Of a stretch of 56,588 nt of DNA, positions 34,119-42,876 are shown in pieces (position 1 is the stretch's first letter; each line of letters starts with the position of its first letter). The DNA comes from Candidatus Micrarchaeota archaeon (GTDB taxonomy: Archaea; Micrarchaeota; Micrarchaeia; Anstonellales; Bilamarchaeaceae). A program made the translations under genes and the position numbers. The notes beneath the pieces are model-generated. The model was not told the DNA's origin and did not search any database. It was given only the letters and a program-made list of their open reading frames with translations. The stretch spans positions 1 to 56,588 of the forward strand of contig WJMN01000054.1 in NCBI GenBank assembly GCA_014727925.1. Direction: 5' to 3'.

Positions 34119-34691
34119 TTATTTATTCAATTTTAGAAAGTGTTCGTGGAATGCAGTTGAGCCGGACAGTTCCGGATGAAAGGTTGTTGCAAGATAATTT
34201 CCCTGCTGTACTCCCACCGGCATTCCCAGATGTTCTGCAAGCACCGTTAGCCCACCGGAAACAGACTCAATTACCGGCGCCCTTATGAAAATCCCCTCAA
34301 TTGCCCCAAGAGAAGTTTCCAGAGGTGCACAAAATGATTCTAGCTGCCCCCCATATCCATTCCGCACCAGTCCAATGTCCATCAGCCCAAGCGTTTCCTG
34401 GCCCGCAACCCCTCCGGAAATGTTTTTGGAAAGAAGCACTGCGCCTGCACAGGTCCCCATTATGGCCCCAACTCCTCGTACATCTTCAAAAATTCCATTC
34501 TTCCTCAAGAGCAGGGAAAGAGCGGTACTCTCTCCTCCGGGCAACACTATTCCGTCAAGTTCCCTAACCTCTCCCCTGCGTCTTACTTCCAAAATTTCTC
34601 CTTCAAGCCCCAGTTTCTCCATCGCCTTCTTCAGATATTCGATATGCTCTGATACTGCGCCCTGAAGGGCAAGAACCCCGACCTTCATCAT
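34119..34691 (-). CDS. pdxT: PLP synthase glutaminase subunit
   Basis: [41 protein letters not shown]. Confidence 0.95.
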
Positions 34692-35563
34692 ACTCCCCTT
34701 TCTGAAAGCCTCTGCCCCTCCGGTATGTCAGAAATCTCAAGGCCCTCCATCGCCCTGCCCAGACCGCTTGATACGCTGGCAAGCTTGCCCGCATCCCTGT
34801 AATTGGCAACTGCTTCAACTATTGCCCCTGCCATTTTTTCAGGGGCAGAGGATTTGAATATCCCTGAACCGACAAACACCCCATCACAGCCCATCTGCAT
34901 GCATAATGAAGCATCTGCAGGTGTGGCAATTCCCCCGGCTGCAAAGTTCACTACCGGCAGCCTCCCTGCGGCCCTGGCCTCAGCCACCAGTTCCTCAGGC
35001 ACTCCGGCCTCTTCTGCATATTCTCTTGTGTCCATCTTCACCAGTTCCTCTATCCCTTTTTTAATTTCACGGATATGCCTCACCGCCTCAACAATGTTAC
35101 CTGTTCCTGCTTCCCCCTTTGTCCTTATCATGGCAGCCCCCTCATTTATTCTCCGGAGGGCCTCCCCCAGATTCCTTGCCCCGCACACAAACGGAATCCT
35201 AAACTCCCTTTTGTCAACATGGAATTCCGGGTCTGCAGGGGTAAGCACTTCGCTTTCATCAATATAATCAACCCCTAGCGCCTCCAGTATCTGGGCTTCG
35301 GCAAAATGCCCTATTCTAACCTTGGCCATGACCGGTATGCTTACTGCATCCATTATTCCCTTTATTGTTTCAGGATCAGACATCCTTGCAACTCCCCCAC
35401 TTGAGCGTATGTCTGCAGGCACCCTCTCAAGTGCCATCACCGCGACCGCCCCCGCCTTTTCAGCAATCCTTGCCTGGTCAGGGCTTACAACATCCATTAT
35501 CACACCGCCCTTGAGCATCCTGGCAAGGCCGCTTTTAAGCTTAAATTCAGGTTCCATGCCCAT
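34688..35563 (-). CDS. pdxS: PLP synthase lyase subunit
   Basis: [53 protein letters not shown]. Confidence 0.97.
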
Positions 35564-35647
35564 ATTTTGCAGCTATCTGTTAAAAAGTTGCCTAACACTC
35601 CGTAATGTTTATTTAGCTATTCATGTTAATATCTTCGGTGGATACTT

Positions 35648-37036
35648 ATGCCCGGAACTGATGATGTTTTTGAATATATCACATCAAACAACATAAGGTG
35701 GGTGGACCTCCAGTTTTTTGATGTGGAAGGAAGGCTCAATAAGACAACCCTGAACGCAAGGGAGCTCAATACCTCCTCATTTTCCCGTGGAATATACTGC
35801 GGAGACTTGAAGGAAGTTTTTGGATGGTCTGAAGAAGGGGAGCTGGTTTTGATGCCCGATGCCAACACTTTTGGTAGGGTCCCCTGGGAGCCAAGCACAA
35901 TGAGGATGATTTGCGATGTAATGGTTAGCCCGGGCAAGGAGCGTTTTCTTAAGGACCCCCGCTACGTAACCGAGCGGGCCTCAGTAAATGCAGGGGCGAT
36001 GGGATTTACAGACATTACGTCTTCCTCAGAACTTGATTTTTATGTTTTTGACAACGTAACTGTTGACAAGATGACGCCCCAGAGGGGCCCCAACTGCCTT
36101 ATAGAGTCGAGGGAAGCGCCCTGGTCTCCCTCCCCGCTCTGGAACACAAAGAACGGCGCATACTTCTCCCAGCCATTTGATACACTTTACAGCGCAAGGA
36201 CCCAGGTTTCAGAAGTTGTTGAAGACAATTTCCGCTACATAGTGACCAAGCATTACCATGGAAGGTCCACGAGCGGCCAGCAGACTATTTCCGTTGCCCC
36301 GCTTCCCCTGGGGGTCTGCTCCGATGCAATCCAGACAGTTAAATTTGCAGTAAAGAACCTTGCATTCATTGCCAACTCCCTGGCTACCTTCATGCCCTTT
36401 CCAGTTCTTGGAGAGAGGGGAAACCAGCTGCTCTCAGGATTTACCTTCTGGAAAAAAGATGAAAACGTGTTCTATGATTCAACTGATGATTATGCCCAGA
36501 TAAGCCAGACTGCCCGCTATTTTGTAGGTGGCCTCCTTGACCATGCAGAAGCCCTGACCATTTTCACCTGCCCCAACCCGAATTCATACAAGCGCCTTGC
36601 TGCAGACCCCCGCCACATCTCCTGGGGGAAGCGCAACTCCTCAGCACTTATCCGCGTTGAGAACGAAATCCGTAATGACCGCAAGGGAAAGAAGGTGGTC
36701 TTCAACCTTTCTGACCCCTCTACAAACCCACACATAGCCCTTGGGGTGGTGGTTGCTGCAGGCCTTGATGGGATAAAGAACAAAACAGAACCAGGCGACC
36801 CGATAGACTCAAACATGGGAGACATGGACACCGATGAGCTGAAGAAAGCTGGGGCAAGCCAGGTCCCTTCAACTATTCTAGAAGCAATCTCTGCACTGGA
36901 AAGCGACAACAAGTTCCTAAAGGGAACCCTCTCATCTGATATTCTGGAGAGTTACCTAGAAGACAAGATTGAGGAGCACCGGGAGCAGAGCACCCGCCCG
37001 ACTTCCTACGAGTTTGAGAAGTACTTTAACTTATAG
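35648..37036 (+). CDS. Glutamine synthetase type I homolog with degenerate active site (probable pseudoenzyme)
   Basis: GS scaffold present (VDLQFFD, L.PD..T, VPW, KDPR, FMP, NSYKRL, DPS.NP, C-terminal helix) but most metal and substrate ligands are substituted; intact frame. Confidence 0.85.
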   Translation: MPGTDDVFEYITSNNIRWVDLQFFDVEGRLNKTTLNARELNTSSFSRGIYCGDLKEVFGWSEEGELVLMPDANTFGRVPWEPSTMRMICDVMVSPGKERFLKDPRYVTERASVNAGAMGFTDITSSSELDFYVFDNVTVDKMTPQRGPNCLIESREAPWSPSPLWNTKNGAYFSQPFDTLYSARTQVSEVVEDNFRYIVTKHYHGRSTSGQQTISVAPLPLGVCSDAIQTVKFAVKNLAFIANSLATFMPFPVLGERGNQLLSGFTFWKKDENVFYDSTDDYAQISQTARYFVGGLLDHAEALTIFTCPNPNSYKRLAADPRHISWGKRNSSALIRVENEIRNDRKGKKVVFNLSDPSTNPHIALGVVVAAGLDGIKNKTEPGDPIDSNMGDMDTDELKKAGASQVPSTILEAISALESDNKFLKGTLSSDILESYLEDKIEEHREQSTRPTSYEFEKYFNL

Positions 37037-39507: not shown

Positions 39508-42500
39508 ATGTGCATTATGAATGAAAAGACAATAACCTATGCCAGGGCATTTTTGTTTCTTTTTGTGTTTTCCTCGCTGTTTCTTTGTCCTGTTTATGGA
39601 GCAGATGTTGATGTTAGCAAGCCAGTACAGCTGACTTTCAACGACAGCTACGAAAGGAACCCGACTGCATTCATGGATGATTCGGGAAGATACTGGGTTT
39701 TCTATGCCAGGGGAGATACATGCACACAGCGGAACGGTTGCGACCCTGACAACGATGCCTACATGATATATTACAAATATTCAGATGACGGAGGAACAAC
39801 TTGGTCTCCCCCGGTTCTCCTAAACAAGGCCCGCCCAACAAACTTTAACCAAAGAGACCTTTCCGCCTTTGAAGATGAGAGCGGCACAATCTGGGTTTTT
39901 GCAAGCTCTGGAGACAGCGGAACCTGCAGGGCACTTTTCTATTACACCACTGATGATGGTGGCGCTACTTGGTCTGATGCTGCAGGGGTAGCCCTTGAGG
40001 GAATTGCCAACGACAGCAATTGCGCCCCTGTTTCCGGAACCAGGATGGGCCATTCCCACCTCTTTTATTCAAATGGCCTTATCCACCTTGTCTACCAGAG
40101 CTCAGGAGGCTCAAAAATATACTACAGCTCAAGCAACGATTCTGGGGCAAACTGGTCTGCCCCCATTGAGGTCTATTCCTCCGGGCATTATGTCCCAAAA
40201 ATACTTGAAAGCTCTGGCCAGCTATACATCGTAACCGCAAAAGGAGCAGACGGCCAGATATGGCTTGCCAACTCTTCTGATGATGGGGCCACATGGAGCA
40301 CAAAGCAGATTGCAGGCAGCAACAGCGCCTGGGGGGACTGGGACCCAACAATTTCAAGACTTCCCGACTCAAAACTTCTGGTTGTCTGGGCCCCGAATAT
40401 AGGCTCTGACGGCCAGCAGCTAAAGCAGGTATACTCTTCTGATGATGGGGCCACCTGGTCTGATGCCCGTGACATTACCGCAGGAAGGTATGGAAGCGCT
40501 GAATGGTGGGACTACTGGCCGGACATTCTCCCCGGAACCAACAACTATTTCTTCTTCAGTTCAGAGCACGACAGTACCGGAACCGCATACGGAAGCGGAA
40601 ACATATGGATGTATGATTTTGACTGGGATATGGATCATAGCCACTACGATACCATAACCGGTGCAATTGGAAATGCCACAGATGGCTCAACAATAGAAGT
40701 TGCCGCGGGCAATTACAGCGAGGCGCTTCTCATCAATGGATTCAATGGCCTCACAATAAACGGCTCCCCAGGAACCATTGTCACTGGAGGGGCAAGCATG
40801 GATACAAGCTTCGGGGCAAGGGACTGCGTGGTCCTTGTAAACAGCTCTTTCGATGTACTCCTTGGCCAGCTGGATATTGAAGGTAGGAACCTAGGAAGCA
40901 TGCAGGGTGGCACAAACGAAAAAAGCTATGCTGTGGTTTATGATGCTTCCAGCGGGGAAATAAGTGATTCAATAGTGTCCCCAAATAATCTTGGGGACCC
41001 AGATGCAACCGGAATCGCATTGTGGTTGGATTCAAACCTTACAGTAAATAATTCAGTTATAAAAAAGTACGGGAGGGTAGGCATTTTCGGCTACTCCTGG
41101 GACATCAACTGCTCTGCAAAAATATACGACAGTATACTTGAAGGCCCTGCATACCCGGGCACAAACGACAGCCTACTCTCATATGGAATAGAAAGCGAGA
41201 GCCTGCTTGCTACCTGCTCCTTTGAAATAATTGGAAATGATATATACAACCACTACAATGGCCCAGGGGGCTATGGCCAGTGGGGCTCCGCAGGCATTGC
41301 AATAGATGGTTATGATGAATCATATGCAATGGACCTTGAGGATTCTATTGTTGTTATTGAGCAAAACAACATCTACGATAATGAAGAGGGAATCGCCGTT
41401 GCCACCAACAATCTTTCTTATGCCCGCAATAACAATATCTATGATAACCTTCTGCACGGGGCAATAAGCATAAACATCTCTGCCGCCCCCTATGTGAAGG
41501 TTTTCAATGCCACCGGTAACTATTGGGGGGCCCCGGATGGCCCAAATGGAACTACAAATACCGGTTTAGGAGACAGGTTTACGGATGCAGTTGATGTCTG
41601 CCCGTTTCTGGATGCAAACTATCCAGGCGGAAATCCCTCCACCTGCCATATAGATGCTGCCTGCCGGGTTGTGAAAACAGTTTCGGACTATTTCCCTGAG
41701 ACCGGAGACAACATTACATTTATCCTAAACATTTCCAATACCGGAAGGGCCAACCTTACAATTTATGCAAACGACACTCTCCCTGCCGCTCTGCAGTTCC
41801 TGCAGGCTTCCCCTGCAAACACATCTTCCCAGAACAATACTGTATTCTGGGATGCAATATTCACCAGTCTCTCCCCCGGAGAGTCCCGCCTTATAGAATA
41901 CAATGCCACAGTGCTCTCGACAGAGAAAATGAGGAACACTGCAGAGATAACAGGAGTTCCGGATTCAGGGGATAATGCCACCGCAATGGATTCTGTGCTG
42001 CTCTGGAACACACCCTCATCAGGTGGAAGCGAGCCGGATGAAGAGCTTAGTGCAGAATGGAACCTCCTCTGCCCTGAGAACATTATTGAATTTTCCCTAG
42101 AAAGTGCAGGAGAAGAGATCCCTAATGCAGAGGTACATTTCCAGCACAAAGTTAGCACAGCATACCTGACCATAGAGACAAAGGACACTGATTCCGAAGG
42201 AAAAGCACAGTTTAGTATTTTCAAAGCAGGAACCTACAGGATTCTCGCCTCCAAATCAGGATATGAGGATTTGCGTGAAACCTTCAGCACCAGTATGTGC
42301 CCTGGATGTTCTGCGGATTCCGACTGCCCGGAAGGGCATATTTGCGAGCAAAGCGCCTGCATCCCCCCTGAATGCACTGATGATGCAGATTGCCCGGAAG
42401 TGCAGGTATGCAAAAACTGGACATGTATTGAAGCACCCCAATGCATATCCGATGCAGATTGCGGCGACCTCTGCCTTGTCTGCTCGAATTCAGGAACCTG

Positions 42501-42876
42501 CATCTTCAAGAACGAATGCACCAGCGATTCCGACTGCCCAGAAGGAGACTCCTGCATAGATTGCATTTGCACTGCATCCGCCCAGGCTGATGAGGAGTAT
42601 GGGGATGAAGATCAGGGCACTCAGGAAACATCCGGACAGGCAGCCACAACCGGAGAAGAAAAAGAAGTTCCGCAGGATCAGGAAGCAGGTCTACAAGAAG
42701 AATTCAAGGAAACCCTACAGCCCAATGCAGGGGCAGAGGGGAGTGAGCAGGAGCCTTTCCTTTCAATTTTATCAAGGCCCCTAGAATGCCTGCCCTGGGC
42801 GATTTTGCTATTGCTCTTTGCAGCAGCTGTTTATTATTTTCTGCAAAAGTCCAGGCAAAGCAATAAGAGAGAGTAG
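39508..42876 (+). CDS. Multidomain surface protein: BNR/Asp-box propeller, beta-helix, DUF11-like Ig domain, Cys-rich repeats, C-terminal anchor
   Basis: Signal peptide; five SxDxGxTWS-type repeats; IEQNNIYDN/ARNNNIYDN beta-helix; VVKTV...GDNITF.L...NTG; C..D.DCP.G..C repeats; TM + basic tail. Confidence 0.85.
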   Translation: MCIMNEKTITYARAFLFLFVFSSLFLCPVYGADVDVSKPVQLTFNDSYERNPTAFMDDSGRYWVFYARGDTCTQRNGCDPDNDAYMIYYKYSDDGGTTWSPPVLLNKARPTNFNQRDLSAFEDESGTIWVFASSGDSGTCRALFYYTTDDGGATWSDAAGVALEGIANDSNCAPVSGTRMGHSHLFYSNGLIHLVYQSSGGSKIYYSSSNDSGANWSAPIEVYSSGHYVPKILESSGQLYIVTAKGADGQIWLANSSDDGATWSTKQIAGSNSAWGDWDPTISRLPDSKLLVVWAPNIGSDGQQLKQVYSSDDGATWSDARDITAGRYGSAEWWDYWPDILPGTNNYFFFSSEHDSTGTAYGSGNIWMYDFDWDMDHSHYDTITGAIGNATDGSTIEVAAGNYSEALLINGFNGLTINGSPGTIVTGGASMDTSFGARDCVVLVNSSFDVLLGQLDIEGRNLGSMQGGTNEKSYAVVYDASSGEISDSIVSPNNLGDPDATGIALWLDSNLTVNNSVIKKYGRVGIFGYSWDINCSAKIYDSILEGPAYPGTNDSLLSYGIESESLLATCSFEIIGNDIYNHYNGPGGYGQWGSAGIAIDGYDESYAMDLEDSIVVIEQNNIYDNEEGIAVATNNLSYARNNNIYDNLLHGAISINISAAPYVKVFNATGNYWGAPDGPNGTTNTGLGDRFTDAVDVCPFLDANYPGGNPSTCHIDAACRVVKTVSDYFPETGDNITFILNISNTGRANLTIYANDTLPAALQFLQASPANTSSQNNTVFWDAIFTSLSPGESRLIEYNATVLSTEKMRNTAEITGVPDSGDNATAMDSVLLWNTPSSGGSEPDEELSAEWNLLCPENIIEFSLESAGEEIPNAEVHFQHKVSTAYLTIETKDTDSEGKAQFSIFKAGTYRILASKSGYEDLRETFSTSMCPGCSADSDCPEGHICEQSACIPPECTDDADCPEVQVCKNWTCIEAPQCISDADCGDLCLVCSNSGTCIFKNECTSDSDCPEGDSCIDCICTASAQADEEYGDEDQGTQETSGQAATTGEEKEVPQDQEAGLQEEFKETLQPNAGAEGSEQEPFLSILSRPLECLPWAILLLLFAAAVYYFLQKSRQSNKRE

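Follow-up and report, generated by a model that had tools for sequence, protein, structure and literature searches.

Does a gene that encodes both domains of glutamine synthetase (GS) over their full length necessarily encode an enzyme? The question is raised by a gene for a 462-residue protein on contig WJMN01000054.1 (assembly GCA_014727925.1) of a Candidatus Micrarchaeota archaeon, all 56,588 nucleotides of which were analysed (hereafter 'the window'). An original prediction, made from the letters of the DNA, had described the product, here called the GS-like protein, as a full-length, apparently dead GS with a selected non-enzymatic role. The results below indicate that it is very probably a GS-derived pseudoenzyme, unable to perform ligation and kept by selection for another role. 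With less assurance, we favor the further reading that this pseudoenzyme derives from a type I (beta-like) GS and persists because its oligomer serves as a scaffold or because it binds or regulates without catalysis.

Profile searches and structure prediction establish that the GS-like protein belongs to the type I GS (GSI) fold, with a beta-grasp N-terminal domain (Pfam PF03951) followed by a former catalytic domain (PF00120). The open reading frame (ORF) is intact from ATG to stop, and the two domains account for its whole length (Table 1). The best relatives of solved structure are dodecameric type I-beta GS, namely those of Salmonella (1f1h/2gls), E. coli, Azotobacter, Synechocystis and M. 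tuberculosis, and HMMER aligns the type I-beta GS with the GS-like protein end to end at E-values of ~1e-63 (E=2e-63 for Salmonella 1f1h). The alignment to alpha-type GS is split in two, because the GS-like protein carries the beta-type insertion. An AlphaFold2 (AF2) monomer model, built with the alignment of the clade described below, has a mean predicted local distance difference test (pLDDT) score of 90.6 and a predicted template-modeling score (pTM) of 0.91, and drops below a pLDDT of 80 only at residues ~141-180, that is, in the beta-type insertion and the Tyr179 loop. Foldseek matches this model to subunits of GSI dodecamers with template-modeling (TM) scores of 0.90-0.92, root-mean-square deviations of 2-3 Å and 28-29% identity. 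Scores against models of individual GS families lie below the respective cut-offs: 323 bits vs. 429 for the GlnA equivalog TIGR00653, 186 bits vs. 650 for the PuuA model NF045547, which sets the GS-like protein apart from the gamma-glutamyl-amine ligases (PuuA, GlnA2-4, GmaS), and 165.6 bits vs. 469.6 for the type III GS model TIGR03105.

The same alignments show that most residues of the GS active site have been replaced. Residue numbers are those of classic Salmonella GS (PDB 1f1h), confirmed on the Salmonella sequence rebuilt from HMMER output, and HMMER and MAFFT alignments agree on the residue calls. E129 alone is identical among the six metal ligands (E129, E131, E212, E220, H269 and E357): metal site n1 keeps position 131, as Asp, and has lost 212 and 220, and metal site n2 keeps E129 and has lost 269 and 357. 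The Glu327 flap is deleted, and the phosphate- and ATP-binding residues H271, R339 and R359 are gone (H271G, R339S, R359N). Y179A and E207T are further losses, the Tyr397 loop has no counterpart, K352 is kept and R355K is a conservative change. The substitutions E131D, E212G, E220T, H269L, R339S, E357V and R359N had been called correctly in the original prediction, as had the intact frame and full length; the flap deletion, H271G, N264R, Y179A, E207T and H210Y were not among its calls, and one detail of it is mistaken. The Asp50 loop, described as absent, has normal length and retains its Asp, with G51, S52 and S53 replaced. The list of retained residues, given as E129, R321 and R344 only, is right for those three, and D50, G265 and K352 have to be added. 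The GS-like protein is a clear homologue of an enzyme without the catalytic residues of that enzyme, and we infer that it cannot perform ATP-dependent ligation of glutamate to ammonia or gamma-glutamyl-amine ligation.

A search for PF00120 across 151 species genomes of the phylum yielded genes in two score classes, ~380-466 bits and ~160-305 bits, of which 70 genes were extracted for alignment. In one MAFFT alignment, 34 of 34 high-scoring GS keep the six metal ligands and the flap, and 34 of 34 low-scoring sequences keep two ligands at most. Because 34 intact GS of the same phylum show every ligand in the very alignment in which the others show their loss, we conclude that the ligand losses are no alignment artefact. 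All of the 120 best database homologues of the GS-like protein (46-98% identity) have Gly212 together with the deletion of the flap, and the residues common at positions 220, 269 and 357 are never the catalytic one. Those homologues that carry a name are from Candidatus Micrarchaeota, Micrarchaeia or Bilamarchaeum. In a library of representatives at 50% identity, the ligand-less group accounts for roughly 25-30 of the 150 best clusters.

Phylogenetic trees place the ligand-less sequences together. In a FastTree analysis of 145 rows, 56 ligand-less rows fall on one side of a supported branch. In an IQ-TREE analysis (LG+C20+F+G4) of 81 rows, with 32 active-site columns removed, 31 ligand-less rows form a clade (SH-aLRT support 99) that nests in a group of 35 (SH-aLRT 96). 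On the other side of the branch from the clade is L071, an intact GSI from Micrarchaeota, together with a few forms that are half-degenerate (L067, P0130, P0138). Branching inside the clade matches the genus groupings of the genomes, and the clade is found in two families of one order, that of the window (f1) and f6, the other families having an intact GS only, or none. We conclude from the trees that the ligand-less copies have a single origin, with vertical descent in at least two Micrarchaeota families. The clade probably arose by duplication of a Micrarchaeota-type GSI, with a parental type like L071.

Several sequences near or beyond this clade are altered in other ways. L067 (positions 295-1725, + strand; genome G116, contig 21) is a half-disarmed GS that adjoins the clade in both trees; it scores above the GlnA cut-off (466 vs. 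429 bits), yet has E212A, E220T, H269C and, in the flap, E327N, and its genome also holds an intact alpha-type GS (L013). L065 (7029-8735, - strand; with an N-terminal extension of ~147 residues) and L066 (1520-2812, + strand), both from family f14, retain the metal ligands but carry R321D and lack the Glu flap; on a long branch, they are sister to the clade, and they may be divergent ligases. Outside the Micrarchaeota clade, among intact beta-type GS, P0183, P0197, P0170, P0150, P0174, P0193, P0218 and others keep one to three of the six metal ligands, which suggests independent disarmings elsewhere. The representative library also contains giant tandem-GS proteins, P0125 (4424 residues), P0149 (2757) and P0222 (1356), with 6-7, 3 and 3 catalytic-domain matches, respectively, and, in two of the three, a C-terminal left-handed beta-helix (Hexapep/LbH).

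Missing catalytic residues would also be expected of a gene recently inactivated and heading for loss, and one copy in the family does carry an in-frame TAG (genome G152, C69:2875-3936, - strand). Selection on the gene argues otherwise. Pairwise Nei-Gojobori ratios of nonsynonymous to synonymous substitution (dN/dS, omega), for pairs with unsaturated dS, are 0.03-0.19. In comparison with the closest congener (95% amino-acid identity, dS 0.74), omega is 0.032 for the GS-like gene, vs. 0.087 for pdxS, 0.072 for the thermosome gene, 0.143 for pdxT and 0.104 for the downstream membrane ORF in the same pair of genomes. Across the genus, the GS-like protein is as conserved as PdxS (72-79% vs. 76% identity); in comparisons between genera, its rate of change is somewhat higher than that of the intact GS from the same pairs of genomes (45-60% vs. 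60-71% identity). Nearly all of the ~90 copies seen have an intact frame, the predicted fold is of high confidence, the clade extends over two or more families and, at 50% identity, over ~25-30 clusters, and, by our count of the rows for 61 family genomes, ~58 have a ligand-less copy. Recent decay is refuted by the omega values, by their comparison with those of neighboring genes and by the near-universal presence in the family, and we consider it next to impossible. The original prediction of a selected non-enzymatic role, rather than decay, is thereby supported, as the ligand losses define a conserved clade under purifying selection. (One genome, G014, has two copies of identical Pfam score, 256.6 bits, on contigs C1 and C40, likely an assembly duplicate.)

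If the ligand-less copy does not ligate, it might still serve an enzyme that does, as a non-catalytic partner that joins an intact GS in its assembly or regulates it, in the manner of the dead GdhA subunit in the glutamate dehydrogenase (GDH) of Thermus. Origin by duplication of a Micrarchaeota-type GSI fits this proposal, as does the presence of both genes in about 35 of the 61 family genomes, the number with an intact GS. However, ~23 of the 61 genomes have the ligand-less copy alone, among them six of the seven genomes of the window's genus, and a PF00120 search of the assembly that contains the window (1.0 Mb, 88% complete) found no second GS beside the GS-like gene. In the one congener with an intact GS (G070, contig 14, L072:5362-10532), the alpha-type glnA lies in a ~5.4 kb segment together with ORFs of 1052 and 153 codons. 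In the window's genome, the genes that border this segment lie ~1.1 kb apart on one contiguous contig (C8:3036-4187), with a single unrelated ORF of ~320 codons between them; because the syntenic site is contiguous and lacks glnA, the absence of glnA is real and not an assembly gap. In addition, the intact GS is alpha-type in some family genomes and beta-type in others, whereas the ligand-less copy tracks the species tree, and the two genes were never adjacent at the loci examined. From the solitary ligand-less copies, the empty syntenic site and the mixed type of the intact GS, it follows that the GS-like protein has no obligate role as subunit or regulator of an intact GS. The suggestion of a regulatory subunit, made in the original prediction, thus finds no support in this genome, and we judge it very unlikely in general.

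The absence of an intact GS bears also on the glutamine economy of the cell. The window encodes the glutamine-using proteins PurF, PurQ, PurS-PurL and PdxT, of which PurF, PurQ and PdxT had been noted before; with these and no working GS, the organism consumes glutamine that it apparently cannot make, which implies that, in the window's genus, glutamine is supplied by the host or the environment. A GDH-family enzyme is present in 38 of 41 family genomes, including that of the window, and the signaling protein PII (PF00543) was found in none of the 41.

The pattern of constraint within the clade indicates which parts of the protein are under selection. Among 119 clade members, 49 alignment columns are invariant, and most are identical in Salmonella GS (D103/R105, D186, R192, H211, D233, K239, N280, H304, N317/S318, D362, N366, AGLDG and D424 among them), so the preserved part is the GSI scaffold, and the catalytic centre has been given up. 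Conversely, the clade shows less than 60% conservation at 35 positions at which the nearest intact GS do not vary; the majority are catalytic or substrate residues, and they include 207, 210, 220, 264, 267, 269, 271, 338-340, 344, 355, 357, 359 and, in the Asp50 loop, 52. Only seven positions switch to a new conserved residue (G51L, F133Y, E194Q, E212G, L311F and others), and 15 gain constraint. In the old cleft, the clade retains E129 (~80%), Asp or Glu at 131 (119/121), G265 (120/121) and Arg or Lys at 321 (121/121), which we take to be the contacts for the alpha-amino and alpha-carboxylate groups of glutamate and of amino-acid inhibitors in Salmonella GS complexes. Ser or Thr at 273 and Arg or Lys at 355 are kept in most members, and a basic residue stands at 264 in 105 of 121 and at 213 in ~60%.

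Strong selection is what one would also see in an enzyme, and the GS-like protein could still be one, with new chemistry or another substrate on a GS fold. Other chemistry is known to run on the GS and guanidino-kinase fold; in the clade, neither Gly212 nor the HxHG..QQ hairpin varies, and conservation extends to the remodeled Asp50 loop. However, no new conserved catalytic constellation is seen: most cleft positions vary beyond the seven switches, and both metal sites have been lost, along with the flap and the arginines that bind phosphate. To our knowledge, all characterized GS-like ligases (PuuA, GlnA2-4 and Haloferax GlnA-2) are active and ATP-dependent and keep exactly these metal and ATP ligands. 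We regard continued catalysis as distinctly unlikely.

A pseudoenzyme kept for its assembly, which is the reading we favor, could work as follows. The GS-like protein would still assemble into a GSI-like ring or dodecamer, and it would be this assembly that selection maintains, whether to serve as a scaffold or to bind and regulate without catalysis. Within the cleft, the introduced basic residues R213 and K/R264 probably take over from the metals by pairing with the retained acidic residues E129 and D/E131, and the remodeled Asp50 loop (D-L-x-E-V-F-G) of the adjacent subunit probably fills the old cleft. The substrate contacts kept clade-wide are only E129, D/E131, G265 and R/K321, those taken above to hold the amino-acid backbone, and the pocket may therefore still bind an amino acid, e.g., glutamine or glutamate, without turnover. 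Three observations weigh against this reading. First, the invariance of Gly212 and of the HxHG..QQ hairpin is a constraint on the cleft that a pure scaffold model leaves unexplained. Second, clade members differ from one another at most positions of the former active site, which speaks against a single small-molecule ligand that fills the whole old pocket. Third, neighbor clustering (33 loci) and a Pfam tally (114 neighbors) yielded no conserved partner common beyond the genus.

A more specific form of the same reading is that the protein is a metabolite sensor, whose dead cleft would bind glutamine or glutamate, or else some other anionic metabolite, with the oligomer relaying the signal to glutamine-using pathways. 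The retained amino-acid backbone subsite (E129, D/E131, G265 and R/K321), the enrichment of the pocket in basic residues, and a genome that has PurF, PurQ, PurSL and PdxT yet no GS speak for it. So do neighbors of the gene that include pdxST in its own genus, purF (upstream in two loci) and a gene for a PGM/PMM-family mutase (divergent from the GS-like gene in six loci of other genera). However, these neighbor links are weak and depend on genus, most pocket residues are variable in the clade, and PII is absent, with no other known signaling partner. The 2-oxoglutarate site of the archaeal enzyme MtGS comprises Arg20', Arg88', Arg174, Arg175, Ser191 and Phe18' (PMC10799026). It was mapped onto the GS-like protein through alignments with B. 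subtilis and Salmonella GS that cover the N-terminal part of the site; Asp20, at least 90% conserved in the clade, stands at the position of Arg20', and a 2-oxoglutarate sensor of the MtGS type was rejected accordingly. We hold a sensor role to be a tentative and rather doubtful proposal. We hold as unlikely its most far-reaching version, in which the dead GS would be essential to glutamine-auxotrophic Micrarchaeota, either sensing the status of glutamine or amino acids or acting as a supply hub; it would be a GSI-type dodecamer whose disarmed cleft takes up the amino acid and which gates, by contacts with other proteins, the glutamine-dependent amidotransferase pathways (for purines, pyridoxal phosphate and amino sugars). 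If true, it would explain why these symbionts keep the dead GS more faithfully than the real enzyme.

The surroundings of the gene, summarized in Table 1, are in part conserved within the genus. Upstream lie a TATA-like box and a Shine-Dalgarno-like element, GGTG(G/A)A in the four species of the genus compared, with GGTG kept; both are consistent with expression of the GS-like gene, and a scan of the upstream region for a regulatory inverted repeat found none. The divergent orientation relative to pdxST was as originally described. A thermosome gene lies at most four genes away in eight loci. Downstream, the membrane ORF that follows is probably co-transcribed with the GS-like gene; it bears an LPDLD motif and has no family match in Pfam, NCBIfam or PADLOC. 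A defense system was considered and rejected, as PADLOC gave no match. Farther downstream, an ORF of 1122 codons (39508-42876, + strand), inspected by eye, shows a signal-like segment at the N-terminal end, numerous SxDxGxTW (Asp-box/BNR) repeats, a stretch rich in Cys and, C-terminally, a membrane anchor, and probably encodes a surface protein.

Table 1. Coordinates in the window of the GS-like gene, its domains and active-site segments, and adjacent elements (residue changes in Salmonella GS numbering).
Feature	Position	Strand	Remarks
GS-like pseudoenzyme gene (P0001)	35648..37036	+	Intact ATG-to-stop ORF, 462 aa; pseudoenzyme status predicted
N-terminal beta-grasp domain, residues 15-92	35690..35923	+	Gln-synt_N, PF03951, E=3.6e-10
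C-terminal former catalytic domain, residues 102-459	35951..37024	+	Gln-synt_C, PF00120, E=3.8e-72, profile positions 2-344 of 344
Remodeled Asp50 loop, D53-L-K-E-V-F-G59	35804..35824	+	D50 kept; G51L, S53E, G55F; strongly conserved in clade
ELDFY strand	36029..36043	+	E129 kept; E131D
HYHGRSTSGQQT hairpin	36251..36286	+	E212G (Gly invariant in clade), E220T, H210Y; clade motif HxHG[R]..xxQQ
GERGNQLLSG loop	36410..36439	+	N264R (basic in 105/121), G265 kept, H269L, H271G
NSYKRLAAD/PRH (slash, site of deletion)	36581..36616	+	R321 kept; 3-residue deletion removes Glu327 flap (gap in 121/121)
NSSALIR	36635..36655	+	R339S; R344 kept
KKVVFN	36689..36706	+	R355K, E357V, R359N
TATA-like box TTTATTTA	35608..35615	+	~35 nt 5' of ATG; kept in 4 species of genus; putative function
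Shine-Dalgarno-like GGTGGA	35637..35642	+	6-11 nt 5' of ATG; putative function
pdxT-pdxS	34119..35563	-	Divergent upstream neighbors; window's genus only
Polytopic membrane ORF, 168 aa	37045..37551	+	Starts 8 nt past GS-like stop; next gene downstream in 6 loci, two genera only

Near-universal retention under strong selection, often as the only copy, leads to the conclusion that the dead GS must do a job other than catalysis in this family of very small, symbiotic archaea. Other GS homologues that are dead or have been repurposed are already known, lengsin and the active gamma-glutamyl-amine ligases among them, and the Micrarchaeota clade appears to be undescribed: a literature search found no description of it, and one paper on Micrarchaeota names GS only for Parvarchaeota. 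Public databases annotate clade members as glutamine synthetase, a label that would credit many Micrarchaeota with an assimilation of ammonia into glutamine that they very probably lack. The retention of a 462-residue dead enzyme in 1-Mb genomes, more faithfully than the live one, marks a function that is probably important, and the protein is a tractable target for expression and for analysis of its oligomeric state, ligands and structure.

Comparison with known systems places the GS-like protein among GSI-derived proteins with and without activity. With the type I-beta GlnA of Salmonella and E. coli (1f1h, 8v1y), Synechocystis (3ng0) and M. tuberculosis (1hto), it shares the two-domain fold, the beta-type insertion, the scaffold motifs NSYKR, DPR and AGLDGI and the C-terminal helices; it differs from them in lacking four of six metal ligands outright and in having Asp for E131. 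Its nearest catalytically intact relative in both trees, the Micrarchaeota GSI L071 (genome G039; 580 bits with TIGR00653), retains every catalytic residue, unlike the GS-like protein. The GS of Bacillus subtilis regulates TnrA and GlnR as a GSI dodecamer that acts through protein contacts set by the ligand state of its cleft. It offers a model for a sensor role, but is also a working enzyme, and we found no partner of the TnrA/GlnR type for the GS-like protein. Gamma-glutamyl-amine ligases keep the metal and ATP ligands, whereas the GS-like protein has lost them. E. coli PuuA, Streptomyces GlnA2, GlnA3 and GlnA4, and Haloferax GlnA-2 are GS paralogues without GS activity (PMC5403932, PMC8998196, PMC8394153). 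Lengsin of the vertebrate lens (PDB 2j9i) represents the same kind of evolutionary outcome as the GS-like protein, with an independent origin. It is said, in work of Wyatt and colleagues from 2006, to derive from GSI, to have lost GS activity and to be kept as a dodecameric non-enzymatic protein. The GS-like protein is not a member of the lengsin family, its match to 2j9i being weak and partial (E=8.5e-6, residues 205-459), and lengsin differs from it in being eukaryotic and tissue-specific and in having a different N-terminal region. The GS-like protein would be a prokaryotic counterpart of lengsin.

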